IMG/VR virus record: IMGVR_UViG_3300032268_000293 | Coordinates: 1-64,000 of that record | Origin: a virus | Reading direction: 5' to 3' (one strand) | Length of the DNA stretch: 64,000 bases | Shown: one piece after another, positions 15,516 through 63,421 of the stretch | Layout of the letters: every line of letters begins with the position of its first letter | Numbering within the stretch: position 1 is the stretch's first letter | The notes under the pieces: generated by a model | Told to the model about the DNA's origin: nothing | Seen by the model: the letters and a program-made list of their open reading frames with translations, nothing else | Database searches by the model: none | Made by a program: the position numbers and the translations under genes

Positions 15516-15724
15516 TGCATCGTTTCTTCTGGCCAAGGGTGATCACGCATCACTTCAAGGAACTCTTGGAATTTTTCTTGTGTTGAGTTTGTTCTAAACT
15601 CTTGGGCAATTACACCAAGAAATACACCAAAGACTTCCATCGGTGTAACATCACCCTCAGAAATAACCTCATCATATAAGGAACGAACCCTTTGGTAAAT
15701 TACTTCGAAATTTTTATCCATCAA
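15512..15724 (-). CDS. Hypothetical protein
   Basis: Overlap-coupled ORF in operon. Confidence 0.55.
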   Translation of the reverse strand: MMDKNFEVIYQRVRSLYDEVISEGDVTPMEVFGVFLGVIAQEFRTNSTQEKFQEFLEVMRDHPWPEETMQ

Positions 15725-16151
15725 TTTTCTCCACAGTTACATTACATTTTTTAAGAAATTCTATGCCTATTTCATCACGATAACTATTTCTATAATAAAC
15801 ATTTTTGATACCTGCGCCATATACTAATTTGGCACAGTGAATGCAGGGAGCATGAGTTAGGAACATAGTTGCGTCATTACCAGATTCGCCATCTCTAGCG
15901 AGTTTACTTATCGCATTGGCTTCTGCGTGAATAACTTCGTCTTTAGTTTTTGTAACAACCCCACCATCTTCGTGAACTTCGATAACTTCTTCGCAGGAAT
16001 TATCCCAACCTTCTGGCGTTCCGTTGTACCCGATAGAGATAACTCTATGGTTTTTGACCACGATTGCTCCAACTTGGAGACGCTTTGCGTGGCTGAGTTC
16101 GGCGAACCTCTCAGCCATGTCCAAATACGCATCAACCCACTTTCTCTGCAC
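15714..16151 (-). CDS. dCMP deaminase
   Basis: GYNGTP, HAEANAI, PCIHC. Confidence 0.92.
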   Translation of the reverse strand: MQRKWVDAYLDMAERFAELSHAKRLQVGAIVVKNHRVISIGYNGTPEGWDNSCEEVIEVHEDGGVVTKTKDEVIHAEANAISKLARDGESGNDATMFLTHAPCIHCAKLVYGAGIKNVYYRNSYRDEIGIEFLKKCNVTVEKIDG

Positions 16152-30729: not shown

Positions 30730-31383
30730 TTATTGTACAAATTCCTTAGACAAAGGAAATATCTTTGCGATGACCTCGGCACATGCTTTGGCGATGAGTG
30801 TGTGTTCTTTTTGTGTTCCGTTTGCTGAGCGTAACTGTATATAGTGTATCCAAGATCTCAGTGTTCCATTCATGTAAAGTTTAGACTCAATAAGACCTTC
30901 TGGCAAAACAGCACGAGCCTGTTCTTTAGCAATACCATTTGCGATCGCCCACTCATATTCCCTCTTTGCTGCATAAATCACTCTTTGTTGAGCACGTTCC
31001 CACTCAATTTGAATCATTTTATCCTCAGTTTCCACACTATTTTGTCTATTTTTTTCATCTTGAAGACGTGCCTCACGAATGACAAAATTAAGATCTTTTG
31101 TAGGATCAGCATAGCGTTGAGAGAATTCTTGGAAAGAGAAACTACGGTGGCGTAACATTTGTCTAGCAATATCACGTGTTGTAGTAATTTCCAAACATAC
31201 GTTCACCATCTCAAGTGGTGACCAATGTTGATTTTTAATTAGATACTTAATTAGTTTTTCACTTGTATCTTTGTTACTTTGATTGCTTGGATTACTAACA
31301 CGTGCGCAGAATGCCACAAGATCCGTCATGTTTTCAGCAAAGTATTCGGCAGGTTGCGAATATGAGATTAATTCTACTTTCAT
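30730..31383 (-). CDS. thyX: Flavin-dependent thymidylate synthase
   Basis: RHRSFSFQEFSQRY, HWSPLE, KEQARAVLP. Confidence 0.95.
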   Translation of the reverse strand: MKVELISYSQPAEYFAENMTDLVAFCARVSNPSNQSNKDTSEKLIKYLIKNQHWSPLEMVNVCLEITTTRDIARQMLRHRSFSFQEFSQRYADPTKDLNFVIREARLQDEKNRQNSVETEDKMIQIEWERAQQRVIYAAKREYEWAIANGIAKEQARAVLPEGLIESKLYMNGTLRSWIHYIQLRSANGTQKEHTLIAKACAEVIAKIFPLSKEFVQ

Positions 31384-31445
31384 TTTGTTTCCTTCATCAA
31401 TAACTCTTTGAGCCCACATTTCCTCATTCTCAAGAATAGGAATAT

Positions 31446-32459
31446 TCAAATTTTCTTCCATACAGTATATCTCGCTTTCGCTTCTAAACCACTAACAGTG
31501 TATTCATCGATAAGTTTCAAAACCTTTTCTTGCGTGTAACCAGCAAGAATTAATTCATTTATATCTTTATATCCTGTCTCTGGCATTAAGGAAACAGTGT
31601 AACCAAGATCAATACACTTCTCAATTTGCTTACACAGTTCTTTATTTCTTGGTTCGTTATCAAAAACTACAACGAGATTAGTAGAAAGACCGCGAAGATA
31701 GAGACTATCAAAACTTGCTCCTGCAACAGCAATGGTGTTTGATAGAAAAAGAGAGTCAATCGGTCCTTCAACCGCATAAACTTTTTCAGCAAAATTGACA
31801 CGTTCAAGTCCATAAATTCTCTCCATATCATCATCAAGTTTGATTGTCATATATCTCGGTTGTTCATCGCCGAAAGCTCTACCCTGAAAAGCAAAAACTT
31901 TTCCGTGTTCATTAAAGAAGGGGATTACTAATCGAGGATGATCATTATCTTCTGAGGTGTATGTATATTTAACTCTGTTAACATACTTCTTCCACTTTGG
32001 CGCATAAAAAAGATTTTCATAATGTGTGCGTGGAATTTTACGTTTCTCAACATATAACACAGCAGGATGATCTGCTGGCATTGTATCAATCCGTCTAAGA
32101 CCACTAAGAGTATCATCTTGTAACTCGACAAAAACTGGCTTTGTGTCAGCAATTTCTATCGTTTTATGCGCATTATATCTCTTTGGACCCGACTTATAAC
32201 GCTCCATTACATACTGCTCATAAAGGTATGGGTCAACGTGTTTAATCAGATTGCCTGCGTTTGTTGACACTCCACAATTATGACACTTGTAAAACAAGTC
32301 ATTTTTTGAGGGATATGCGTATCCTCTTGCCTTCAGTTTGTTCTTGGTGCTATCGCCACAGAAGGGACAGGAGAAATTGAAGGTGTTGTCTTTCTTCTCC
32401 TTGAAATTTCGAAGGCGAGAAGAAAGTTGGGTGATGTATTTTAGATCAATGTATAGCAT
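31446..32459 (-). CDS. DNA primase (T4 gp61-like)
   Basis: CPFCGDS...CHNC zinc finger; FQGRA; VEGPIDSLF; FDNEPRN. Confidence 0.93.
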   Translation of the reverse strand: MLYIDLKYITQLSSRLRNFKEKKDNTFNFSCPFCGDSTKNKLKARGYAYPSKNDLFYKCHNCGVSTNAGNLIKHVDPYLYEQYVMERYKSGPKRYNAHKTIEIADTKPVFVELQDDTLSGLRRIDTMPADHPAVLYVEKRKIPRTHYENLFYAPKWKKYVNRVKYTYTSEDNDHPRLVIPFFNEHGKVFAFQGRAFGDEQPRYMTIKLDDDMERIYGLERVNFAEKVYAVEGPIDSLFLSNTIAVAGASFDSLYLRGLSTNLVVVFDNEPRNKELCKQIEKCIDLGYTVSLMPETGYKDINELILAGYTQEKVLKLIDEYTVSGLEAKARYTVWKKI

Positions 32460-44603: not shown

Positions 44604-45815
44604 TTACCTCGGTCTATTTAAAAAGTTATTTCTAGAAAATTCAAGACGATCAACCAATTTAACAACACGATCTCCCTGAACAGCTACGAATCCTTCTGGT
44701 GTTGTAGGAACAAGAGAATTACCTCGCTCAACAAAACCAGAAACCCCTGTCTCTAATTTATTTAATTTGTTTACAATTATCATTTTACATGTAACAATCA
44801 AAGAAAACGCTTCATACGCTTTCTCAAGAACAACTCTGTTCTTATCGAGAAAGTCAATTATCTGCTGTCTCTCATCATTCTTCTTTTGTTTGGTGGCAGC
44901 TGTTTTAACTTTATCAATATCTTTTTGCAGTTCATCATGAACATACTGAGCAAACCCATGCGCCTGAGAGACACCAACGTAACTACCAGCACGAACATTA
45001 GCATTATTGTATTTTGCCATCAATGGATACAGCTGCTTATGTGTTGAGAGATAAGATAAGAATGATGTTGGTATTGCTACTTTAAGTTTCTCTAACTGAG
45101 CATGTGCTTTTAGAATAGTGGCTTGCTCTGATGCAGAGAGCGATAGATCCTTTGTTTTGTCTTTAAGGATAGCGTCATCAACAAACACATTCTTTGATTT
45201 CTTTAATCCAGCAATAGAATAACCGAAATTGGCTTTCATTGTAGCAGGATCAGAGCCAGTGTAGTAAGTATGAAAAATAATACCCATTTTACTTGCGATG
45301 ATTCTTCTACCAAGATCACTATCAGCAACGACAGCATATACAATAGTATTGGGTTTGAAAGTAACATGTTTTACTCCATCAATTGTTTGTGGCTTTAGAT
45401 CGCCTTCAGTATAAAGAAAATCGCCCTGAACAGTTCCATTAATACCAAGATCTCTGCAGTATTTTAAAGCATACTTCATTTTCTCAACAAGACCTGGAGA
45501 ATGTCCATGGTTTGCGATAATATCTGCTTCTGTTCTGTTAAGTTTCGGATTCGCATTGAATGCTGACTTTGAAGCGACCCAATAATCTGTTCCTGAATCG
45601 TGAACAATAATTGAAGGAGAACCATCCCACTTCGTAGTAATTAATGTTCCTGATGGTTTATTATACAAAGCATTGACATAAATCTGAATACTCTCTATGG
45701 CAAAATCTAAACCTGCCTTACCTTCCTCGAACATCAAATCTTCTAGATGCGAGAGATGTTTTAAACGAGTAGTATCGTTTACTGCTTCTGCTATGTAACC
45801 TTTTAAATTATACAT
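44604..45815 (-). CDS. Ligase-like nucleotidyltransferase fold protein of T4-like phages
   Basis: HLSHLED, TTKWDGSP (KxDG), QGDFLY, PEGFV, VKLVDRLEFSRNNF. Confidence 0.6.
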   Translation of the reverse strand: MYNLKGYIAEAVNDTTRLKHLSHLEDLMFEEGKAGLDFAIESIQIYVNALYNKPSGTLITTKWDGSPSIIVHDSGTDYWVASKSAFNANPKLNRTEADIIANHGHSPGLVEKMKYALKYCRDLGINGTVQGDFLYTEGDLKPQTIDGVKHVTFKPNTIVYAVVADSDLGRRIIASKMGIIFHTYYTGSDPATMKANFGYSIAGLKKSKNVFVDDAILKDKTKDLSLSASEQATILKAHAQLEKLKVAIPTSFLSYLSTHKQLYPLMAKYNNANVRAGSYVGVSQAHGFAQYVHDELQKDIDKVKTAATKQKKNDERQQIIDFLDKNRVVLEKAYEAFSLIVTCKMIIVNKLNKLETGVSGFVERGNSLVPTTPEGFVAVQGDRVVKLVDRLEFSRNNFLNRPR

Positions 45816-45823
45816 TTCTTGCC

Positions 45824-47125
45824 TTATTTGATTACGATGTATAGAGAACTATCAGTGCTCAACTTCTTAGAACTAAAATAACAGAATGTCATATTCTCCT
45901 GAAATTTGGTTTTCGGTGAAATCATGAAACTATAAAGATATGAGATCAAGTTCGCGAATCTATCTTTAGTTAATTTATCTGCCTTACTGAACAATGCTTC
46001 TGCTTGCTTGTAGTCTTTAATCGTATTTGATAAACGTGGGAATTTGGTAAACATCTCTTTTAATTCTGTTTTGGCTTTGGTATAATCGCTTGCTGATACA
46101 CCAACACCACTACGAACAGTATAACCATACTTCTGCTTTTGATGTGGTCCATACTGTTTAGCATCAACAGCACCAAGTTGATAACCTGCACCAATAAATC
46201 TACCTTCTAGAGATACATTTAATGTTGTGGCAGATGCTTTAAAACCACAACGAACAGCAAAACCAGATTTCGTTTGGACAATAAAATTAGCAAAAGTATC
46301 TGACAAATCTACTTTAGAAAATGTCATGTCATAATCTAATTTCTGATTCATTTGAGATGCTGGGTCAGTTATCTCGAGAACAGCTTTATCTTCAGTAACT
46401 TGCTTTAAAGAAATAGGAATAAGATCTTTCTTCTTGAATGCTGCAGCAATACCATTATTCAGTTCTTCAATAGAAGTTGCATTTACAAGTTTCTTAATGT
46501 CGTATGTTTTCTTAATCATCCAAACGTCAGCTGGATTCCAGTTGTCATTTGCTTTACCAGATAATTTTCTGCCAGTCTTATACAAGTTATCAGTTAGATT
46601 TGACGCTTGTCTTTCATAATGATACCCTTTGTTACTGCCCATAAACTTCTTTATAACAACTGTTTGTTTTGCAGCGGATTCATAATAAATTGATTGGTAT
46701 AAGTTTTTCTTGCTACCAATTTTCTGCATAATCTGTTCTTCAGTTAAGGTTTTGTTCGATTCAATTGCTGCCTCAAACATATACATGCTAATCAATTCTT
46801 TTAACTCAGTAAGAGCACCTGTGTTGCTCTTGGAATTTTCGCTGAAATGATTAAAACAATTATTGATTGAACTTTCAGAACCTTTTATAAGAACAACTTT
46901 TTTATTGGCATCAATTAGAGTTATAGTATCTTTACCAGATGCTAATTCAATTACAAGACTTATGTCTTTTGTCTTTGCTGTTTTTGTGATGGTGAACACC
47001 GATTCACCAAGTTTATACTTGTTATCAGTAAACTTCTTTCCTGTTGATGGTGGAATCTTATCTGATTCCTTTAGAACTATTTTATGTCCCTCACCATACT
47101 TTGAACTACCAACAATTGATGCCAT
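45824..47125 (-). CDS. Hypothetical protein, possible PD-(D/E)XK nuclease
   Basis: TELKE...DNWNPADVW...IPISLK. Confidence 0.5.
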   Translation of the reverse strand: MASIVGSSKYGEGHKIVLKESDKIPPSTGKKFTDNKYKLGESVFTITKTAKTKDISLVIELASGKDTITLIDANKKVVLIKGSESSINNCFNHFSENSKSNTGALTELKELISMYMFEAAIESNKTLTEEQIMQKIGSKKNLYQSIYYESAAKQTVVIKKFMGSNKGYHYERQASNLTDNLYKTGRKLSGKANDNWNPADVWMIKKTYDIKKLVNATSIEELNNGIAAAFKKKDLIPISLKQVTEDKAVLEITDPASQMNQKLDYDMTFSKVDLSDTFANFIVQTKSGFAVRCGFKASATTLNVSLEGRFIGAGYQLGAVDAKQYGPHQKQKYGYTVRSGVGVSASDYTKAKTELKEMFTKFPRLSNTIKDYKQAEALFSKADKLTKDRFANLISYLYSFMISPKTKFQENMTFCYFSSKKLSTDSSLYIVIK

Positions 47126-47137
47126 ATTTTTCCAAAA

Positions 47138-47857
47138 TTAACTCTGTTTTTTTCTTTGCTTACAAAGAACTCTCTCATATTTATTGTTCCATTTAATGAC
47201 TTGTTTAAACAACTTGGGTATTGCTTGGTTGTTGTGAGCATCGTAATTAAATGTTCTGAGATAGTATCGTAGAGTTTTTGAATCTCGACTTTTTCTGGCT
47301 CTAGAAAGTAATTGAGTTATTGGAACATTTGGTCGATTTCTTTTAAAGTCCAAGTATATACAATGGGCATATGCTTGTATTTCATCAAACTCCGAAAGAT
47401 ATTTTCTTTCTTCGTTCTTTTTAAGCTGTTTTACTTTTTTGTAGGGAAGAACATAATTTGACCACTCATCACATCTTCTATCAAACTGCATAAAATGCAC
47501 AAGTTCATGCATAGCAATTTGAATGAGTCTGAATTTAAATTTATTCCACGTTGTTTCTGTAAACGGGAATTTGTCAAAGTAATCTGTATAAATGTGTATA
47601 GCACACTGTCGTTCTTGTGGGTCATATTCACCACCCATTGCGACGTTTGTTAAATAGAATTTCGACTTCAGTTTCTCTGGGCGATACTCAACTTTAGTGC
47701 GCCATTTTTTGAAGTAGTTTGATAGACCCTTAGAATCGTTGCGATACAGGTCTAAATCGTTCCAAATTTTTGATGGAATGAATTTTGCTCTGAACGGACG
47801 TTCAGAGAAAGGTAGAAAATCTATGAAATCGATATTTACTTGTTTGAGATGTTCCAT
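47138..47857 (-). CDS. Putative zincin metallopeptidase
   Basis: HELVH and downstream DEIQAYA. Confidence 0.65.
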   Translation of the reverse strand: MEHLKQVNIDFIDFLPFSERPFRAKFIPSKIWNDLDLYRNDSKGLSNYFKKWRTKVEYRPEKLKSKFYLTNVAMGGEYDPQERQCAIHIYTDYFDKFPFTETTWNKFKFRLIQIAMHELVHFMQFDRRCDEWSNYVLPYKKVKQLKKNEERKYLSEFDEIQAYAHCIYLDFKRNRPNVPITQLLSRARKSRDSKTLRYYLRTFNYDAHNNQAIPKLFKQVIKWNNKYERVLCKQRKKQS

Positions 47858-47891: not shown

Positions 47892-47920
47892 ATTATACCT
47901 TATGGGTTGTTCGGTGTCAA
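47892..47920 (-). promoter_or_regulatory. Sigma70-type promoter within an inverted repeat
   Basis: Perfect TTGACA-17-TATAAT; ATAAATA just downstream. Confidence 0.75.
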
Positions 47921-47925
47921 ACAGT

Positions 47926-49275
47926 TTATCCGAAAAATTCGTCTAAACTCTGGGTTTCTTGCGTTTCGAAGTGTTCATCGAACATATTTCGCGAATTTTT
48001 AGCCAAGTTTGGATCGAAATTCGTTTTTGTAAGAAGTTCGTTTAGATACCCAGTTGGCTTTTGTTCAGCCAAATCAACATAATGCTGGGCAATACGCTTA
48101 CGATCAAACTGCTGGATTAACTCATAGTTGTTGTTGACGATACGCATATACTCAGTCTCTGGCATATCGCAGTACTCAGCGATCTTTTCGCCATATTCTT
48201 TTGGTGTATAGGACTTCTTAAGCATACAGTAGTTGACCCCTGCTTTCAGAAGAACACCATTACCTTCTTCGTTGTTGGAAACGCCATAGTTCACAGCGAT
48301 GGGCACAGTCCCGATACGCATAGCATCCACGACAACCCGATTGAAATGCTCACCAAAAGTGTTAGACCAACTAGAATCAATAAGAAATCTAGAAGTTGAT
48401 AAAATCTCGTCACGTTTTCCTCCAGAAATAAAACCAAGATACTCGAAGTTGCCTGAGTTTTCGGCATTTTCCCAAATACGTTTACCTTCCCTATCAGGTG
48501 TTACGTCTGGGTCATATTGCCTAGTAGCAAAATAATCTTCTTTACATTTTTCCTTCGACATCATGTATGCTGCTTCAATACCATAACCACCAACAAGGGT
48601 TTTGACATTTTTCATGTAAGGTACTGCACGAATAAGGTCGTCCACACGCTTCCAGCGTTTAAATGTCTGTATTGACAGGATTTTGTTCTCGCGACCAGCA
48701 AACTGCGGAGTAGGTGGTACGCCAGCGATATCCTGAGGGTTTAAAATTAACGCTCGAGGTGTGGACATAAAATCAGCTGAGTCATACGCAGCAGGGTGTA
48801 CGCATGCGAGACCAGCAAAATGTTTTTCAAATATACTAATCCAAGGATAGAGTTTCTTTAGATTTGCGTCATGAATAATTACAATTTGTTTTGCTTTGAC
48901 ATTCTCAATCATTGGCAACCAATCTTTATATTTCTCGGTGTCCTTGTTTTTAAAACCGAAAATAGATTGCCAAATAATAATATCGTGTTTGTTTGCGTCT
49001 TCAACAAATTTGTCGATGGACTCTTTTACTTTATAAGAATAATATGGTGCCATCCAACCATCACCTTGATGAACAGGATAACCAGAACCAATACCAATCT
49101 CCCATCCTTCCTTCAATTCAGAAGGAATCTCAACAGGACGAACTGTCTTTGTGCCTTTAAGGTAGGCAAAATTTACTTCATGACCAAGTTCTTTTAATCC
49201 TGCCATTAGATGTTCGCAGTGATTAATGATTCCACCAAAGTTGTTGAAGGTGTGCATTACCATTAAAATTCTCAT
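47926..49275 (-). CDS. GT-B (GT4-like) glycosyltransferase, candidate DNA glycosyltransferase
   Basis: N-terminal FGGIINH, FKRWKR, EHFNRVVVDAMRIGTVP; ends SLDEFFG. Confidence 0.75.
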   Translation of the reverse strand: MRILMVMHTFNNFGGIINHCEHLMAGLKELGHEVNFAYLKGTKTVRPVEIPSELKEGWEIGIGSGYPVHQGDGWMAPYYSYKVKESIDKFVEDANKHDIIIWQSIFGFKNKDTEKYKDWLPMIENVKAKQIVIIHDANLKKLYPWISIFEKHFAGLACVHPAAYDSADFMSTPRALILNPQDIAGVPPTPQFAGRENKILSIQTFKRWKRVDDLIRAVPYMKNVKTLVGGYGIEAAYMMSKEKCKEDYFATRQYDPDVTPDREGKRIWENAENSGNFEYLGFISGGKRDEILSTSRFLIDSSWSNTFGEHFNRVVVDAMRIGTVPIAVNYGVSNNEEGNGVLLKAGVNYCMLKKSYTPKEYGEKIAEYCDMPETEYMRIVNNNYELIQQFDRKRIAQHYVDLAEQKPTGYLNELLTKTNFDPNLAKNSRNMFDEHFETQETQSLDEFFG

Positions 49276-50102
49276 GTCCAAAGTCCTTGTCTAATTTTAA
49301 TCAAACGAATCATCATGTCTTCGTCTTCTTGTTCATAGCGTTGCTCAATTTCAGTGCACAAGTCAAGTGCTTTTTTAGTTTCTTCTTTTTCTTCTTCGGT
49401 ACGATCCTCAAAGTCAAGGAATCCTTTATCAGCCTCGCGACGTTTATCGCAAATAGCAGACCAACCAGATGCTTCGTGGGCATCAACACGTTTTGGTCGC
49501 TCAACTGTCCACCAAGTATATAGATCTAGAATTTCTTGCGCTTTAATTGCTTGGTGAGTTAATTTACCAAAACCCTCATCATCGGGTTTGAGACCCCAAT
49601 CTTCACCAGCTGTCAATTTACGTTGCCATTCTAGATTAGCAAGTCCGCACTCTGGATTGCGCCAAGTGCGCCAACGGAACCATCCTGTGGCATACCAAGG
49701 TGATTTAAACTTCTTGCGTGACTCTTCATCCCAAACAACATGCCACCACGCAAGTTCTACTTCCACAAAATCGACAAGTTCATTGAAGAGGCATGGTAGG
49801 AAGCGATTTCCGACATCACACCAGTTTCCTGGCTTAATGTCACGAGGGTGGGCAGTAAGAGAATGAGTGCGAGTAACCCAGCGATTATTGATGTAGTATT
49901 TAACAGAGTAAATCGCATCAGGAATGTATAGAATTGCTCCCTGAATCGCATCAAGACCTTCTTCGGCAAGCCAGTATCGAAATTTGTGTGCTTCTTTTGC
50001 AGCTGCATTCCAGTTTCTCCATCCCTTTGATGTTTCTGCGTGTGGCTTTGGTGTCCCACGAAGCCAGTCGGCGAATTTAGTGCATGACCAATAGTTGCGC
50101 AT
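49272..50102 (-). CDS. Trp-rich hypothetical protein
   Basis: Coupled ORF; FNELVDFVE, LYTWWT, MIRLIKIRQGLWT. Confidence 0.7.
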   Translation of the reverse strand: MRNYWSCTKFADWLRGTPKPHAETSKGWRNWNAAAKEAHKFRYWLAEEGLDAIQGAILYIPDAIYSVKYYINNRWVTRTHSLTAHPRDIKPGNWCDVGNRFLPCLFNELVDFVEVELAWWHVVWDEESRKKFKSPWYATGWFRWRTWRNPECGLANLEWQRKLTAGEDWGLKPDDEGFGKLTHQAIKAQEILDLYTWWTVERPKRVDAHEASGWSAICDKRREADKGFLDFEDRTEEEKEETKKALDLCTEIEQRYEQEDEDMMIRLIKIRQGLWT

Positions 50103-50105
50103 GTT

Positions 50106-50321
50106 TTACCTCTTTAAATTTATGTATTCTTTAAAATAATTATCAAATTTGTTAATTAAGCTCTCAATGTCACTGCTGTTTGTAAGATCCTCAACTATGC
50201 GCTTCTCATCCATATTAAACTGTTTCGCATATCTTCTTGCGATACTTAGAAGAGTCGCAACTCTCATGTTAGGACTCTTCAAATTTAATGAAAGTTTTTG
50301 TCTTTCTTCACGAAAACTCAT
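50106..50321 (-). CDS. Hypothetical protein
   Basis: Overlaps the dioxygenase stop. Confidence 0.55.
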   Translation of the reverse strand: MSFREERQKLSLNLKSPNMRVATLLSIARRYAKQFNMDEKRIVEDLTNSSDIESLINKFDNYFKEYINLKR

Positions 50322-51631
50322 ACAAAGAATTCATCAATATCAGCCTTTACCGCATTGGGATGATACTTCGCCAAATCTTCTTCACCAAGTTTGTTGCGAA
50401 GGTAATCATACCACTCTTGTTCTTCCCACATTCCTGGGGAAACACCATTCCATAGTTTTTTCCATAGAGGGTGTTCTTTGTTCAATCTACGAGACTCAAC
50501 ATATTCATATCTAGTATTTTCGTATTCGTACGATCCAAGTTCTAACATGTTTTCACGCAAATAAACAACAAGCGAAACACGCTCAGAACCTTCTTCGCAT
50601 ACGATTGGTGTGTTACCATGAATAACCTCATGATTGTTTACCAACAACAAATCTCCTGGACGAACATTTACGGCAATACGAATTTCAGGGAAAATCAAAT
50701 AACCACCTGTGTATCTACCATCATTAGAAAGTGTCAACAGATTTGAAAGACCATCAGAAAAGTCGCCAGCATCACGATGAGCAGCAGTTCTAAATGTTTT
50801 ATTTACTGTTACTGTAGTAAAAGGTGTCTCAGGAATAACAAATCTTGGATCAATTTTATCTGTTGCTACTTTCTGAGCGGAATATCTTGTTGGTAATAGT
50901 GTCTCAAAACCTCTAGCCAAATGCTGAAGGAAGGGATACGCCATCTTAAACTTCTCAAAATTATCACGAGTATATGTAGTCGCACGACCAAACGGAATAC
51001 GAGGATAACGATCGAACCAACCTGCGATACCAGAATCAACTGGATTACCATAGGATGTTTCACTAACCATCTTCATAGTTTCTTGTGTTGATTCTGCTCT
51101 CTGCGCAGGTGTCAACGGAATAATACTGTCAACCCACTCATCAAAATTAAATTTGTTGCGGAAACGTGAGATAACCCAAACATTATTCTTACCCGAACCC
51201 AATGCTTTCAAACGTGACTCTGGTGTTGGATAACGTGAACGAATTTCTTCAATAACATCCTCATCTCCGAGTTTGGCTTTTTCTGCGTTGAGTAAAGCAA
51301 GCATTAGTTCTTCCTGATAATTTGTTACCCACTCACGACCTTCGCCTGTTACCGATGTCCCTTCTTTGATACCAGAAGCAAGTCCACGATTTTCAGTACG
51401 AACAGCAGCCTCACGCAATCCAGCATATGCTGCGTCTTGTTCTTCCTTTGAGAAAAAGTTTTTTCTAAACTTAAAGGCAATATGCCTTTCGTCTGGATCA
51501 ACTCCATAACCAGATGGAAGATAACAATCCGTATCCTCTTCAATCAAAATATCATAATTGGACTCATCAACAAACATACCAAGTAAATGTTCGCAGTCAT
51601 GTTTTTGTTCTAGTTTAATTACACGTGTCAT
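50318..51631 (-). CDS. TET/JBP-family 2OG-Fe(II) dioxygenase
   Basis: FTTVTVN..FRTAAHRDAGD (HxD), GGYLIFPE, IHGNTP, ERVSLVVYLRE; ends IDEFFV. Confidence 0.85.
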   Translation of the reverse strand: MTRVIKLEQKHDCEHLLGMFVDESNYDILIEEDTDCYLPSGYGVDPDERHIAFKFRKNFFSKEEQDAAYAGLREAAVRTENRGLASGIKEGTSVTGEGREWVTNYQEELMLALLNAEKAKLGDEDVIEEIRSRYPTPESRLKALGSGKNNVWVISRFRNKFNFDEWVDSIIPLTPAQRAESTQETMKMVSETSYGNPVDSGIAGWFDRYPRIPFGRATTYTRDNFEKFKMAYPFLQHLARGFETLLPTRYSAQKVATDKIDPRFVIPETPFTTVTVNKTFRTAAHRDAGDFSDGLSNLLTLSNDGRYTGGYLIFPEIRIAVNVRPGDLLLVNNHEVIHGNTPIVCEEGSERVSLVVYLRENMLELGSYEYENTRYEYVESRRLNKEHPLWKKLWNGVSPGMWEEQEWYDYLRNKLGEEDLAKYHPNAVKADIDEFFV

Positions 51632-53022
51632 ACTTTAAACCCTTCGAAATTGTTTTCTTCTATTCTTTTACCAAAAGAACTTTGATCAAATAGAGGAACA
51701 TCATTATCAACTTTACCCATACCACCCAAATTACTTTGAGCACTCATCTCAACATCATATAGACGCATATGTTTACGATCAACTCCAACAATAAATCTCT
51801 TATAGAAATTTGGATCAGAATAACGATTCTTCAACTGTTTCACCATAATCTGATTCAACTCCGCAAGTTCCTCTGTACTAATTAGAGCAATCATTAAGTC
51901 TGCTGTTGCTGGCAAACCGAAAGATTCAGAAGTATCTTCAAGACCAACATCAGTGTTACTATAACCAGAACGTGTAGTTTGTGTAGCAGAAACAATTGGC
52001 ACTTTATACTCAACAGCCAAACCACGAAGTTCTTCTGCGATTGCTTTAATATATGTATAAGAGTTTACATTTCCACTCAGTTTCAAACGCTGACTTGCAC
52101 AAATATTAATATAATCGATAAAGATAATGTCTGGCGTAAAGTCTTTCTTCAATCTCAACTCTTCAAGCAAAGCACGGAAATGACCAGCATGAGCAGAAGT
52201 GGTAGGATATTCTTTTACGACCAATTTACCATTCGTCTTTTCTTTCAACTTCTCAACACGAGAATCAAAGACCCTACGCTCAACCATCTTCAATCCTTCC
52301 ATAGAAAGATCAAGTAGGTTTGCGTCAATACGTTCTGCAATCTTTTCCTCAGCCATCTCCATGGTTATGTATAAAACATTAACACCCTTCATCAACATAG
52401 ACGAAGCAAAATGACACATTGCCAAAGATTTACCAACACCAGTACCAGCAAGAATAATGTTCAGCGTTTTCTTACTGACTCCTCCGTTCGTGATTTTATT
52501 GAGAAGTTCAATGTCGAAAGGAATCTTCTCTTCAACCCTGTGATAAAAATCATAACGATCAGCAGCATTTTCAAGATAGTCATGACCAACATGATTATCA
52601 AATGAAACGGCAAGAGCATCGCTAAGAATAGAAACAATCGCATCTTGGTTACGGTTTTTATCTTTTCCATCAATTATTTTGATTGAACTGAGAATAGCAT
52701 TATAAACTGCTTTATCTTTACAGAATTTTTCTGTTGATTCAACCAACCACTCCTCATTAGAATGTTCATCCGCAAAATCTTCAACAAGTTCGTTAATGTT
52801 TTTTACTTGTTCGTCAGTAACATCAGTTCTATTACTTACTTCAATTTTAACAATATCTTTACTTGGAACCTTACCATACTTGTTAAAGAATTTATCAATT
52901 TCCTCAAAAACAATACGATCTGTTCTCTCAGTAAAATACTCAGGAACCAGAAAGGGCATAACCTTTCTGGAATATTCCTCATTAGAAATTAGATTTGAAA
53001 AAATCTGATTTTCAATTCTCAT
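51628..53022 (-). CDS. Replicative helicase (T4 gp41-like)
   Basis: [37 protein letters not shown]. Confidence 0.95.
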
Positions 53023-54070
53023 TCAATTCTTCCTCTAGTTCTTCAATTTCTTGCTCAACGTCACTACCATAATTATACTTTGATTTACAATATTTGTCAA
53101 GTTGAGTTAAGATATCCTCAGTGAAGAAATTAGAGGGATTGCTTGCAATGTTTTTACCGAATACTTTTCTACCATCATGAACCTCGATACGACCACCCTG
53201 CGCTTTCCAGATTCCTGCTTCAACAGCAAGATCGGTTAGACCATGATGACGATCTAGACCTTTAGTGAAAGACAATTTTGTTTCAACCATAGATTTCTCT
53301 CTTGTGAAACGAGACTTCTCAAGTTTACACTTGATAATATTACCAACAACTTCAGTTCCGTCTTTATCTTGCGACTTAGAAAGGAACACGATTGTTGATG
53401 CTGCATATTTCAAGCCATCGCCACCACCCATAACTTTAGTTGGAATGTAAGCACCAACTGCTGCGTAAGTATGATTAGTCACAACCATAGCAATATCGAG
53501 TTTAGCCAACTTCAAAGATAGCACCCTGAAAGCACCTCGAATCAACTGCGCACGAGTCATATCTCGTGTATCTTTCCCCTCAAGCGTATCTTCCATTTCT
53601 TTAGCAGTTGAAAGCATACCCAATGAATCAAGGAACAACATCAAAGGTGGGCGATCTTTCTTTGGTGTCTTTTCATAAGCATCTAGAATCTTAGATGCTT
53701 GAGTGCGGAATTCTTGAATCGTAGAAACAGGAACAATAACAAAACGCTTGGTGTCAATACCACGTTCCTGAAGCATGTCCTTCGTCAACGCACCTTCTGT
53801 TTCAAAGTAAACGACTCCAGCTTGTTCATTAGTTCGAAGAAAATTTCCCGCAATGCCAAGAGCATAAAAGGTTTTTCCTGTGGAAGACTCACCAGCCAAA
53901 GCTGTAACTTTGTTGCTAGGTAAACCACCATAGATGCTACCACTGATAAGAGCATTAAAGGCATAAGAACCAGTATCGATAAAACTGCCAGTATCACCAA
54001 CCACACCATCATCAGCCAATCCCGCATATTCATTATCAAGTTCCTTTACAATATTTTTTAAAAAACTCAT
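53012..54070 (-). CDS. uvsX: RecA-like recombinase
   Basis: [31 protein letters not shown]. Confidence 0.93.
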
Positions 54071-54318: not shown

Positions 54319-56799
54319 TCATGCGAAGAATTCATCTAGATCGTTTTTCTCAACAATACTCCAGTCAATTGCCTCAAGAATTATTGAAAGTGGATCAAGA
54401 AACACCTTCTCAAACTGTTTATCATAATCTATGTATTTATGTAGATTCAGCTCATTTGGTAAAGTACCAACAAACGAAATAATGTTTTCGTGTATTGTGT
54501 TTGGTTCACGCAAGTAAACGAATTTAATTTTATCACCATTCTTAATCAATTGATATTTGTTTAAGAGATTCATTTCTTTCATGTAGTGATTATATAACAA
54601 AGCACCACGGACATGAATTGGCGTAGCCTTTTTATAGATTGTTGATGAAGATTTATAATCATTCAAGTCATTTACGCCACGTGGGAAAGCAATCTCTTCC
54701 ACACTCATCGTATTAAATTTCTTTTGAAAGTCAAGAACGAACTTCCTTAGTTCTTTCTCATCACCACCCATAATCACTTTAATGGCATCTTTTAAAGTCT
54801 CACGAATAGTAGCAGGTGTTGACGACTTAACCACCTCAAGACCCATAATCTTCATCTTGGGTTGCGCATACTGAACACCCTCAGAGTTATGGACATTGAG
54901 AACGTAGCGTTTCTTAGCAGTCCATATACCTTTGTCGGCGATAGACTCACGCTTCATAATCATTTTTTGATCATAAGCATTCTGTCTTCGAGCAAGTTCT
55001 TGATAACATTTATCGATGAATGGTTGAACCTTGTCTTCGCATATCTTGTCGATTGTAACTATTACTTTTTGGGTGTCTTTTTGTTGTTCTTCTGTGAAGA
55101 TAGAATCAACAAGCGGAGCCATATTAATATACACAGAGTCAGTATCAACAGCAATAACATAGTCTGCTCCTTCAGTCTTTAACAATTTGTTGAAATATTC
55201 ATTGAGTCTATCGTGGATCCAACGAATAGAAAGTTGACCAGAAAGTGTAATACCTTCTGATAATCGTTTATCGTAGTATCGGAAATATTGATTAGCCAAA
55301 GCACCATAAGCAGAGTTAAGAGCAATCTTTAATGCCATCTGTAGGTTGTTGAGTCTAGATATCTCATTAGTCAATGCATGATTCTTTGTGTTCTCATATT
55401 CCTGCTGCACTTTCAGCATCTGCTTCTTTGACTTGCTTCGATCAGTATACATTTTCTCCATCAACTCAGGGAGGAAACCACGTACGTCTTTACGATAACA
55501 CCATCCATTCGCAGAAACAGCAAGTCCATTATTATCTGGCTCTTCTTTCAGAAACAAATCTACTCCACCAGAAACGCTTTTAACAATAGTCTCGGGAGAC
55601 ATATTATACTGCATAATCAAATGCGGATACAGACTATTCAAGTCAAACGAAACTACCCACTTATGAAATCCAATCAGAGGATCTTTAACATACGCACCTT
55701 CAATTGCTGTGTCTTTAGAGTTACCAGTCTTTGGTGGTATAACAATCTTTTTTGCACGCAAATGATTGTAGATTATAGTATCCCACATGCGAACCTGCGA
55801 AAACACATCTTCGTAGTTCACCTTTGCGTTATAAGCCATAACAATCGCCAACTCGACAAGTTTCATCTTGTCTTCAAGCATGTCAACAAGAGAGGTGTCA
55901 TGAATATTATAGTCAACGAAATCACGCCAGTGGTTTGTATAGAAATCTTTGAAAGAATCTCCTGGGTTTTCTTTCTTACGCTCACCAAGTTCCACAAAAG
56001 CAATATGGTCAAGACGATACGATTCCTGCATCGTATAAGTAAACTTCTTATAGAGATCGATGTAGTCAAGAACACTTACGCCAATAATATCATACGCAAT
56101 TTCTTTATTGCCTTTGATGTAGATTTCTCTGCGTGTGATCATATTCCAAGGCGACATCTTCTTAGAGTCATCTTCGCCGAGAACGTTGTGAATACGTTGA
56201 ATCAGATATGGGATATCGAACAGATTGATGTTCCAACCTGTAACAATATCTGGTGTGTTCTTACGCCAAAATGTTAAGAACTCGCGAAGCAGTTTTGCTT
56301 CCGAGTCACAGTGAATGTAGAAAGGACATTGACCATCGTAAGGTTTGCGACCAAACACAGTTAGACGTTTGGTCTTGTTGTCCATCAACGAGATTAGAAG
56401 TATTTCCTCATTCGCCGTTTCGATGTTAGGAAAACCATCCTCAGTCTCAGTTTCAATATCAATAGAGAAACACCTAATCTTGTCCTTGTCGTAAACAATT
56501 TCTGACGGATAATTATCCGAGATGTATTGGTAAGCATAATTTAAATTTCCATAAATTTTAAAACCCTCAACACCCTCGTACTTCTCGATAAAGTCTCGTG
56601 TGTCTTTAATATTACCTGGAGAGAATGAATACACAACTTCGCCATCAAGTGTGCGCATCATCTCTTTTGAATTTTTATGTTTTGATGTTACGTAGAGAGT
56701 TGGGTGGAAATCTATCTTCTCTTTAAATGTCTCACCATTCTCATAACCTCGAACGAGAATTTTATTCCCGATAGAACAAATGTTCGTATAAAACTGCAT
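54319..56799 (-). CDS. Family B DNA polymerase (T4 gp43-like)
   Basis: DIET exonuclease motif, SFDLNSLYP, KIALNSAYG, DTDS, KKRY; ends LDEFFA. Confidence 0.97.
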   Translation of the reverse strand: MQFYTNICSIGNKILVRGYENGETFKEKIDFHPTLYVTSKHKNSKEMMRTLDGEVVYSFSPGNIKDTRDFIEKYEGVEGFKIYGNLNYAYQYISDNYPSEIVYDKDKIRCFSIDIETETEDGFPNIETANEEILLISLMDNKTKRLTVFGRKPYDGQCPFYIHCDSEAKLLREFLTFWRKNTPDIVTGWNINLFDIPYLIQRIHNVLGEDDSKKMSPWNMITRREIYIKGNKEIAYDIIGVSVLDYIDLYKKFTYTMQESYRLDHIAFVELGERKKENPGDSFKDFYTNHWRDFVDYNIHDTSLVDMLEDKMKLVELAIVMAYNAKVNYEDVFSQVRMWDTIIYNHLRAKKIVIPPKTGNSKDTAIEGAYVKDPLIGFHKWVVSFDLNSLYPHLIMQYNMSPETIVKSVSGGVDLFLKEEPDNNGLAVSANGWCYRKDVRGFLPELMEKMYTDRSKSKKQMLKVQQEYENTKNHALTNEISRLNNLQMALKIALNSAYGALANQYFRYYDKRLSEGITLSGQLSIRWIHDRLNEYFNKLLKTEGADYVIAVDTDSVYINMAPLVDSIFTEEQQKDTQKVIVTIDKICEDKVQPFIDKCYQELARRQNAYDQKMIMKRESIADKGIWTAKKRYVLNVHNSEGVQYAQPKMKIMGLEVVKSSTPATIRETLKDAIKVIMGGDEKELRKFVLDFQKKFNTMSVEEIAFPRGVNDLNDYKSSSTIYKKATPIHVRGALLYNHYMKEMNLLNKYQLIKNGDKIKFVYLREPNTIHENIISFVGTLPNELNLHKYIDYDKQFEKVFLDPLSIILEAIDWSIVEKNDLDEFFA

Positions 56800-62755: not shown

Positions 62756-63421
62756 TTATTCAGCAGTTGAGCCAGTCTCAACAGCAACGTAATATGCTAG
62801 TTCTGCGCTTGTGTTCTTAAAACGACAAATCTTCATTTTAGCAATAGTAACGTCATATGCTCCAGGAAGCATCTTAAGGTTTTCAACTTTCAGATATGCT
62901 GTAAAATTTCTATCAGTTGTACCAAGATCAATTTCGAATTTATTACTTAGCGGATTCTTGTTGTCGAATACACGTGCAGTAACATTAGCACCATCACCAG
63001 AAATAGAAACATCGTTTACTTTCAAAATACCAGCAGAACGGATGACATGGTCTAGATCGCCTGATGTAAGTTTAAAAGAAATGTTTGTGTCATCCTCTGG
63101 GAATGCGATAGATTTGGTAGGTGCTTTCAATGTATTAGTGTCTGCTGCTTTGTACTTGATAACATTCTTACCTTGTTTAACTTCGACGATGTCGTTATTA
63201 AATGTAAACTCTGGGTCTTCGAAGAGTGAAACAACACCGAGGAATTCGTTTACATCATAGATACCAAAATCTTGTGGAAAAGATTCCTTTACAGTTGCTT
63301 CAGCAAAAACATTATTACCTTCGTTCTTTGTCGAAAGTTTATTACCCTGCTTAATTAGCAGATTCATGTTGATGGAGGCGAAGTTCTTCACGAGAGTTTG
63401 TGTTTCTTTAGTCAGTTTCAT
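62756..63421 (-). CDS. Sliding clamp (T4 gp45-like)
   Basis: KNFASIN, FGIYDVNEFL, ENLKMLPGAY; synteny. Confidence 0.92.
   Translation of the reverse strand: MKLTKETQTLVKNFASINMNLLIKQGNKLSTKNEGNNVFAEATVKESFPQDFGIYDVNEFLGVVSLFEDPEFTFNNDIVEVKQGKNVIKYKAADTNTLKAPTKSIAFPEDDTNISFKLTSGDLDHVIRSAGILKVNDVSISGDGANVTARVFDNKNPLSNKFEIDLGTTDRNFTAYLKVENLKMLPGAYDVTIAKMKICRFKNTSAELAYYVAVETGSTAE

Follow-up and report, generated by a model that had tools for sequence, protein, structure and literature searches.

A candidate thymidine hypermodification module, with polymerase-like tails on its two enzymes, in the replication block of a T4-like phage

The stretch of DNA analysed here (the window) comprises the initial 64 kb of IMG/VR contig IMGVR_UViG_3300032268_000293, which is 79.8 kb long and comes from a T4-like phage; the CheckV completeness of the 79.8-kb record is approximately 49%. 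Its replication block lies on the minus strand and carries, in gene order, a family B DNA polymerase (PolB), a 70-amino-acid (aa) open reading frame (ORF), UvsX, a DnaB-like helicase, a TET/JBP dioxygenase (TET), a 71-aa ORF (p71), a 276-aa protein (p276), and a GT-B glycosyltransferase (GT451). As shown in Table 1, TET and GT451 are the subject of this study, and an earlier interpretation made from the letters of the window (the sequence-only reading) had taken them for a base-J-like DNA modification system. That reading had the dioxygenase start overlapping the helicase stop, and indeed the ATG of the former and the TGA of the latter overlap as ATGA. It also put the glycosyltransferase (GT) two small genes after TET; two genes do lie between them, but "small" suits the 71-aa ORF and not the 276-aa one. 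From DnaB through GT451, neighbouring genes overlap by 4–10 bases or sit 3 bases apart. Owing to this tight spacing and to the promoter matches before DnaB and after GT451, the five genes DnaB-TET-p71-p276-GT451 look like one early transcription unit, which probably starts at the promoter before DnaB, and the second promoter match is the predicted start of the next unit (p239 and beyond).

Table 1. Features of the replication block and related genes in the window
Feature	Position	Strand	Remarks
Family B DNA polymerase (gp43-like), C terminus NDLDEFFA	54319-56799	-	replication block
UvsX	53012-54070	-	replication block
Sigma-70-like promoter, just upstream of DnaB start	53072-53100	-	TTGACA-17-TATAAT, 12/12; consensus match only
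DnaB-like replicative helicase, first gene of unit	51628-53022	-	Pfam DnaB_C 3.4e-18; phrog_19 1.8e-126
TET/JBP dioxygenase, 437 aa	50318-51631	-	Pfam Tet_JBP 1.3e-22
TET C-terminal tail ADIDEFFV, putative clamp-binding	50321-50344	-	acidic-hydrophobic, polymerase-like
71-aa ORF (p71)	50106-50321	-	between TET and p276
p276, 276 aa	49272-50102	-	between p71 and GT451
GT451, 451-aa GT-B glycosyltransferase, predicted DNA 5hmU glycosyltransferase	47926-49281	-	Glycos_transf_1 5.6e-10
GT451 C-terminal tail QSLDEFFG	47929-47952	-	motif at extreme C terminus
Second perfect sigma-70-like promoter, directly after GT451 stop	47892-47920	-	TTGACA-17-TATAAT; consensus match only
p239, first gene of next unit	47138-47857	-	HExxH motif (MHELVHF)
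gp45-type sliding clamp	62756-63421	-	Pfam gp45-slide_C 9.6e-09; DNA_PPF 8.9e-07
ThyX, context: ordinary dTMP supply	30730-31461	-	confirmed
dCMP deaminase, context: dUMP supply for dTMP	15714-16151	-	confirmed

The 437-aa protein matched Tet_JBP (PF12851) at 80.2 bits, against a cut-off of 34.9, and at 82.8 bits in a six-frame search. At E ≤ 0.01, Pfam otherwise returned only a sub-threshold TauD match on the oxygenase core, and neither a J-binding nor an SNF2 domain was detected by Pfam in TET. The TET genes of cultured phages are labelled hypothetical or "SNF2 DNA repair protein", the latter being the GenBank label of the orthologues in Caulobacter phage Cr30, Stenotrophomonas phage DLP6, and Synechococcus phage S-CBWM1, where it found no Pfam support. 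An alignment of 30 orthologues of 57–84% identity showed that the Fe(II) triad H285-x-D287 and H338 was invariant, as was R351, which by analogy would be the arginine that binds 2-oxoglutarate (2OG). The AlphaFold2 (AF2) model of TET, with a predicted local distance difference test (pLDDT) value of 78.2, was then compared with solved structures. It aligned with TET2 (Z 18.4, root-mean-square deviation [rmsd] 3.5, 255 residues aligned), NgTET1 (Z 18.4, rmsd 3.3, 231 aligned), CcTet (Z 18.3), and CMD1 (Z 18.1), the best other 2OG oxygenase reaching 12.8, and Foldseek returned the same four families at E 1e-6 to 1e-10. Because the structural match runs from residue 1 to approximately residue 376–403, the N-terminal half of TET is not a separate domain. 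A fused ParB-like or otherwise separate domain in the N-terminal ~200 aa had been considered and was rejected, as the whole length fits the TET catalytic fold with an internal insertion and no ParB_N match was found.

A library-wide search collected 1,670 representative TET relatives at E ≤ 0.001, among which approximately 25 were long forms of 430–480 aa and most were of ~300 aa. The latter aligned to the window TET as two segments, of which the core covered query residues 188–375 at ~40–45% identity, and their alignment displayed the same N-terminal NRG motif and SGI.G.FDR.PR.PY motif as the long form. Given these shared motifs, the long form is read as the short form plus an insertion of ~100 aa (approximately residues 88–190) and a longer C terminus. 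A "variable insertion" has been reported as essential and specificity-determining in thymine (T) dioxygenases (O'Toole et al., PMC13229309), and the ~100-aa insertion appears to lie at about that position, as judged from consensus numbering alone. Approximately half of the TET orthologues, for example those in loci L014, L030, L036, L038, and L045, bear a different, Cys-rich insertion of ~20 aa (CD......C.....DC..C) between the positions of residues 42 and 43 of the window TET, which lacks it; this element is possibly a small zinc-binding knuckle.

GT451 matched the GT-B families Glycos_transf_1 and Glyco_trans_1_4, the former at 39.5 bits (cut-off 26.4) over residues 194–385, the C-terminal Rossmann domain. 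The database record starts the protein at Met3, giving 449 aa, and Met3 at 49275 is the probable true start. A GEHFNR...D block is invariant in 24 GT451 homologues, and we take it to sit at the position of the EX7E motif of GT4 enzymes. More than 324 metagenomic homologues were found, several of them on contigs of 150–173 kb; tblastn with GT451 and p276 gave no match in 50,697 phage records, and megablast with the region gave none either. A GT451 profile found nothing among solved structures at E ≤ 0.1 and glycogen-synthase-type noise at E ~1; PF11440 (T4 AGT) had no match in the contig at E ≤ 10, and GT451 had no sequence match to T4 alpha-GT, beta-GT, or the TET-associated GT (TAGT). Among 30 language-model look-alikes of GT451, six were T4 AGT-family clusters (PF11440; best 0.98), which we treat as a lead only.

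The linkage of the two genes was counted in 59 IMG/VR loci in which 2.5 kb or more of sequence lies upstream of the GT. TET lay directly upstream of GT451 on the same strand in 52 of them, with a median gap of 45 bp, and 49 bp downstream of it in five more, giving adjacency in 57 of the 59. The pair occurred in three arrangements (TET-p276-GT, TET-GT, and GT-TET) and in at least two genomic contexts, one after DnaB and the other clamp-proximal. p276, a Trp-rich, mostly helical, and virus-only protein, occurs in some GT-type loci but not in those with TET directly against GT. It could be assigned to no recognisable family or fold: Pfam, PHROG, NCBIfam, and PDB profiles gave no match, its AF2 model was poor (pLDDT 66.9) and retrieved nothing by Foldseek at E ≤ 0.001, and in the Atlas it fell into viral hypothetical clusters only. 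p71 may lie outside the system, since among 80 related loci its sole match was the record's own locus, L001.

The same 80 loci served for a comparison of TET neighbours, which showed that cassettes are exchanged at the position following TET. The first type of cassette contains GT451, with or without p276 or a cytidylyltransferase; the second contains a GATase, a 301-aa protein, a GNAT, a 445-aa protein, an AADT (PF18724), and a P-loop kinase (kinase3, PF18751); and the third contains TAGT (PF20691), besides which a few unknown genes occur in the slot. The AADT/kinase/GATase cassettes sit behind TET orthologues of 53–74% identity. In a quick IQ-TREE tree of TET, with SH-aLRT values as its sole support measure, well-supported branches forced at least five switches of cassette type, and the GT-type locus L016 was sister to the AADT-type loci L031/33/34 with a support of 98. 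A protein of ~279 aa with a weak Anp1 match (c3_279) was rejected as a member of the GT cassette, as it follows every cassette type and is thus a core neighbour. Individual loci showed further variation. In L015 (6714–7124) and L016, a 136-aa cytidylyltransferase-like gene takes the place of p276 between TET and a GT451 homologue of 58% identity, which hints at a different, phage-activated sugar donor in this sub-lineage. Behind TET, phage C48C1 carries an unknown 344-aa protein and a UDP-galactopyranose mutase (L004, 9323–11355), S-CBWM1 carries TAGT, a phosphatase, a glucose-1-phosphate thymidylyltransferase, and an APH-like kinase (L005, 5207–7921), and Cr30 carries an AADT (1.3e-52) and a TAGT-like protein (L003, 11027–13164).

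The C termini of TET and GT451 were found to resemble that of the polymerase. An [LI]DEFF ending occurs in three of the 124 contig ORFs, namely PolB, TET, and GT451 (Table 1). In the complete relative G002, with 206 ORFs, the motif is on Pol, TET, GT, and one baseplate protein, the last with a looser IDSFF ending; a fifth regular-expression match, on a 71-aa ORF ending in MEKYLREK, was discarded as spurious. We then surveyed 84 loci with 1,353 ORFs. The tail was present on 140 ORFs, all of which belonged to eight families: PolB (22/26), TET (64/83), GT451 (28/30), AADT (14/28), TAGT (5/6, plus one further TAGT), GNAT (2/5), a Dam-like N6-adenine methyltransferase (1/1), and a small unknown family. 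In these loci, it was on no GATase, kinase, p276, p239, p433, clamp, clamp loader, or other gene. A linker that differs in length and is little conserved precedes the tail in GT451. The acidic tail was on none of the 80 short-form, ParB-associated TETs; these end instead in a conserved basic tail, K-R-R-K-x-G-x-x-L-N or R-L-T-D-R-K-G-L-N-K (L097–L176), which could be a partner- or DNA-binding element and the counterpart of the acidic tail of the long forms. As the tail is confined to PolB and modification-linked families, its distribution argues that GT451 acts on DNA together with the polymerase and TET, whatever the tail binds. The tailed Dam-like enzyme is a D12-class N6-adenine DNA methyltransferase (PF02086, 1.6e-32) in the TET locus L041 (7110–7985) and ends in NSSNLDDFF. 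A 189-aa protein between clamp-loader genes (cluster c33; L049, 16139–16708) ends in STLDHMFV and is a candidate for another clamp client.

These data bear on whether GT451 modifies DNA at all. TET might make 5-hydroxymethyluracil (5hmU) while GT451 transfers sugar to a protein of phage or host, to a lipid or a precursor of the cell envelope, or to a sugar that another enzyme had put on the DNA; the generic nature of its Glycos_transf_1 match, the JGI label "involved in cell wall biosynthesis" on its homologues, and the missing sequence match to T4 alpha-GT, beta-GT, and TAGT would all fit such an acceptor. We consider this unlikely, however, given that TET adjoins GT451 in nearly all loci counted, the gene order taking three forms and the genomic context at least two, that GT451 shares its slot with AADT/kinase and TAGT cassettes, and that it bears a polymerase-type tail otherwise restricted to DNA-acting enzymes. 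The AGT-family look-alikes point the same way, as a lead only.

We further asked which base TET oxidises. The sequence-only reading had noted neither a C5-methyltransferase nor a dCMP hydroxymethylase in the window, and this holds across the whole 79.8-kb record, where neither PF00145 nor PF00303 (the ThyA/dCMP-hydroxymethylase family) was matched; the ThyX and dCMP deaminase that it listed are likewise present. With a record of ~49% completeness, absences in the contig alone prove little, and complete relatives were therefore used to close the gap. PF00145 was absent from the complete cultured phages that carry a TET orthologue (DLP6, Cr30, C48C1, and S-CBWM1) and from five TET-bearing IMG/VR relatives of 90–100% completeness, two of which, G001 and G002, share the window's p276+GT cassette. 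The search beyond the window, in the full record and these nine complete or nearly complete genomes, thus returned no C5-methyltransferase. PF00303 was also absent from the five IMG/VR relatives, so that the known route cannot supply 5-hydroxymethylcytosine (5hmC) or 5hmU before replication in them. AADT and P-loop kinase are known thymidine-hypermodification machinery working on 5hmU (PMC13229309). In AADT/kinase genomes without ThyA homologues, TET is the only visible source of 5hmU, and since TET feeds an AADT/kinase cassette in one genome and GT451 in a sister, the simplest explanation is that 5hmU is made in both.

The nearest short-form relatives of TET gave a consistent picture. Their neighbourhoods were collected by a locus search with the alignment query, and among 50 records ParB_N was found in 48, on a protein of ~200–225 aa, AADT in 30, and a C5-methyltransferase in one or two. 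This ParB and AADT context matches the experimentally validated, ParB-dependent subclass of T-dioxygenases (PMC13229309). Taken together, the absence of methyltransferase and ThyA genes, the cassette exchange, and the context of the short forms make the route from T via 5hmU to glycosyl-5hmU well supported by gene content and disfavour a 5-methylcytosine (5mC) route. Of the two versions offered by the sequence-only reading, the comparative evidence therefore favours the thymine one. Its premise that the phage TET systems described so far come with a C5-methyltransferase has been overtaken by published work (PMC8256090, 10.1101/2023.12.21.572611, PMC13229309). As one supportive external datum, the table of a review lists DLP6 DNA as restriction-enzyme resistant (PMC8228603).

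Under the 5mC route, TET would oxidise 5mC supplied by a methyltransferase in the missing half of the genome or in the host, and GT451 would glycosylate 5hmC, as in clades A/B. The incompleteness of the contig leaves room for such a gene, published phage T-dioxygenases show some 5mC activity (PMC8256090, PMC13229309), and the known phage GT-B DNA glycosyltransferases act on 5hmC (10.1101/2023.12.21.572611). Against it stand the nine genomes without PF00145, including both with the cassette of the window; the sister TETs, which feed AADT/kinase cassettes specific for thymidine hypermodification; and the rarity of C5-methyltransferases near the short relatives. Moreover, host methylation would presumably hit only sparse sites on fast-replicating phage DNA, and we regard this route as very improbable. 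Equally little weight can be given to a TET with another substrate or product (5-formyluracil or 5-carboxyuracil [5fU/5caU], RNA or tRNA bases, or 6-methyladenine [6mA] demethylation as by fungal CcTet) and a GT linked to it for something other than 5hmU glycosylation. In its favour, CcTet is among the best structural matches and acts on 6mA too (entry 7w5p), phage T-dioxygenases can oxidise iteratively in vitro (PMC13229309), one relative (L041) has a gene for a Dam-like methyltransferase close to TET, and tRNA genes are near several orthologues. Against it, the alternating AADT and P-loop kinase cassettes require uracil in DNA that bears a 5-hydroxymethyl group, the polymerase-type tail points to a DNA substrate, and related loci show no general linkage of Dam-like genes with TET.

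We therefore return to thymine oxidation followed by glycosylation, and consider it moderately probable that the full two-step pathway operates as a post-replicative thymidine hypermodification module of this T4-like phage. In the proposed pathway, dCMP deaminase and ThyX would furnish ordinary dTTP, and the phage would incorporate T. TET and GT451 would share an early transcription unit with the replicative helicase, and their polymerase-like tails would dock on the gp45 clamp at newly replicated DNA. TET would hydroxylate the C5-methyl group of thymine in DNA to give 5hmU, and GT451 would glycosylate the hydroxyl of 5hmU, with a host nucleotide-sugar as donor, yielding a product like base J. 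GT4 enzymes are usually retaining, and the sugar linkage may be alpha if GT451 is so too.

Several points weigh against this interpretation. The nearest short relatives of the window TET depend on a ParB partner that it lacks: ParB_N (PF02195) was not found at E ≤ 1 in the ~49%-complete contig, nor in the complete GT-type relatives G001–G003. Published phage T-dioxygenases oxidise 5mC as well (PMC8256090, PMC13229309), so that TET may have dual specificity, and with its large insertion it could differ in activity or specificity. The clade placement of TET draws on gene context, the contig represents about half a genome, and the sequence of GT451 is not detectably similar to that of any DNA glycosyltransferase with a known function. 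Finally, these proteins could share the tail as a signal unrelated to the clamp. With regard to ParB, the 445-aa protein of AADT-type cassettes (cluster c13_445; e.g., L064, 5979–7316) has a weak ParB_N match, which at L058 (contig G005, 115121–115228) scored 17.7 bits (E 4.5e-4) over profile positions 42–77. This protein might be a divergent ParB-like activator in T4-like phages; no ParB_N match of this kind was seen in GT-type genomes.

As to the clamp, the T4 proteins gp43, gp55, and gp33 bind gp45 via acidic-hydrophobic C termini (PMC2988020), and T4 alpha-glucosyltransferase is described as binding and co-purifying with gp45 (Sommer 2004, as cited in PMC13216743). When the clamp trimer was modelled in complex with GT451 residues 392–451, the prediction scored 0.59, the best of three controls scoring 0.00; the runs agreed in at least 52% of contacts, with a partner pLDDT of at least 34. 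Of 80 solved complexes, 58 reached the mark used in these predictions, as did 2 of 110 mismatched pairs; at scores of 0.60 or below, only 7 of the 80 solved complexes reached it, together with both passing mismatches. The modelling thus lends weak support, and the pass of the clamp–GT451 model may reflect memory of a similar solved clamp–peptide complex. Clamp docking is accordingly best regarded as a well-motivated inference rather than a result, in which TET and GT451 are probably recruited to newly replicated DNA by gp45 via their tails. A broader proposal, which we advance only tentatively and rate below an even chance, is that the modification toolkit of T4-like phages (TET, the GT-B and TAGT glycosyltransferases, AADTs, and the Dam-like methylase) acquired the clamp-binding tail of the polymerase, which would couple modification to the fork. 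There, gp45 would replace a ParB-like CTP-type clamp, and the product in the window phage would be glycosylated 5hmU.

Downstream of the module, p239 is conserved 3′ of the cassette in 22 loci without a Pfam family match, and from its HExxH motif it may be a metallopeptidase-like protein. In many relatives the module is followed by a DUF6267 protein (6.5e-86; 44604–45815, minus strand) and a 433-aa protein (p433, phrog_1462; 45824–47125, minus strand). Neither has the tail, and a separate promoter precedes them, so that they are probably not part of the system.

The module was next compared with known systems. Post-replicative thymine oxidation by TET-like enzymes of phages became established only between 2021 and 2026; in 2021, TET89 was shown to make 5hmU (PMC8256090). 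Most contigs with a 5mYOX and a GT lack a methyltransferase and probably make 5hmU (Pyle et al., 10.1101/2023.12.21.572611), and ParB-dependent and ParB-independent phage T-dioxygenases have been defined, with GTs in 31% of their neighbourhoods (O'Toole et al., PNAS 2026, PMC13229309). With the ParB-dependent clade C1 (e.g., 5mYOX176, PMC13229309), against which it was set by gene context, the window TET shares the TET/JBP fold, the catalytic residues, the lack of a neighbouring C5-methyltransferase, orthologues linked to GATase, P-loop kinase, and AADT, and a C-terminal extension past the catalytic core. It differs in its length of 437 aa with the ~100-aa insertion, against ~290–300 aa; in the lack of ParB from its contig and from three complete GT-type relatives; in its acidic-hydrophobic, polymerase-like tail, against the basic tail of the short forms; and in the occurrence of its type in T4-like myovirus genomes of roughly 150–170 kb. 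The ParB-independent clade C2 (5mYOX89/97, often next to GTs; PMC8256090, PMC13229309) resembles the window system in the lack of ParB, the GT association, and the predicted 5hmU intermediate, whereas TET is closer, by gene context alone, to the ParB- and AADT-linked group.

The likeness to kinetoplastid base J lies in the predicted two-step logic, in which a TET/JBP dioxygenase (there JBP1/JBP2) converts T to 5hmU in DNA and a GT (there JGT) then adds a sugar. In this sense the term "base-J-like" of the sequence-only reading is apt; membership in the kinetoplastid system does not follow from it, as the window TET has neither the J-binding domain of JBP1 nor the SNF2 domain of JBP2, and GT451 matches GT-B families whereas JGT is GT-A-like (10.1101/2023.12.21.572611). 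The role of the window system would also differ, being probably genome-wide protection of DNA rather than a sparse epigenetic mark. The phage 5mC-TET+GT clusters (Burke 2021; Pyle et al. 2023/2024) likewise combine a post-replicative TET with a subsequent GT-A or GT-B DNA glycosyltransferase and carry sugar-activation genes, of which the cytidylyltransferase of L015/L016 is an example here. They need an adjacent C5-methyltransferase and modify cytosine, whereas the window cassette has no such gene; moreover, GT451 lacks detectable sequence similarity to solved GTs. T4 alpha-GT with gp45, and the clamp-binding C termini of gp43, gp55, and gp33, offer the precedents of a phage DNA glycosyltransferase tethered to the clamp (putatively so here) and of an acidic-hydrophobic extreme C terminus shared with the polymerase. 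Unlike T4 alpha-GT, GT451 has no PF11440 match, and its tail explicitly copies the motif of the polymerase itself, which in relatives is also on the dioxygenase, AADT, TAGT, and the Dam-like methyltransferase. The predicted substrate is here 5hmU made after replication, against pre-incorporated 5hmC in T4.

The chemistry proposed is thus not new in kind, phage T-dioxygenases and their link to GTs having been published between 2021 and 2026. In the literature searched, no report of glycosylated 5hmU demonstrated in phage DNA was found, nor, beyond the work on T4 alpha-GT, any that linked a clamp-binding motif to phage DNA modification, and the long-form T4-like TET lineage is not described in PMC8256090 or PMC13229309. 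Three elements appear to be undescribed: the long-form, ParB-less TET of T4-like phages; a GT-B family that adjoins TET in almost every locus; and an acidic-hydrophobic tail common to the polymerase and DNA-modifying enzymes, whose distribution suggests clamp docking.

Of most interest is this polymerase-type tail on modification enzymes, along with what looks like a handover of the role of ParB to the replication clamp. The tail suggests how post-replicative modification keeps pace with replication and what takes the place of ParB; if this is true, one enzyme family is served by two unrelated DNA clamps, gp45 in T4-like phages and ParB in small ones. The predicted module would provide bacterial viruses with a compact two-gene route to a base-J-like nucleotide, and its relatives form a natural series in which cassette exchange couples one dioxygenase to sugar, amino-acid, or other chemistries. 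Sugar-bearing end products of phage thymine oxidation are still predictions in the literature searched, and the cultured phages Cr30, DLP6, C48C1, and S-CBWM1 offer entry points for nucleoside analysis. DNA modified in this manner resists restriction enzymes, may resist CRISPR cleavage, and can hamper sequencing, and new DNA glycosyltransferases and T-dioxygenases would be useful reagents for the mapping of 5hmU.

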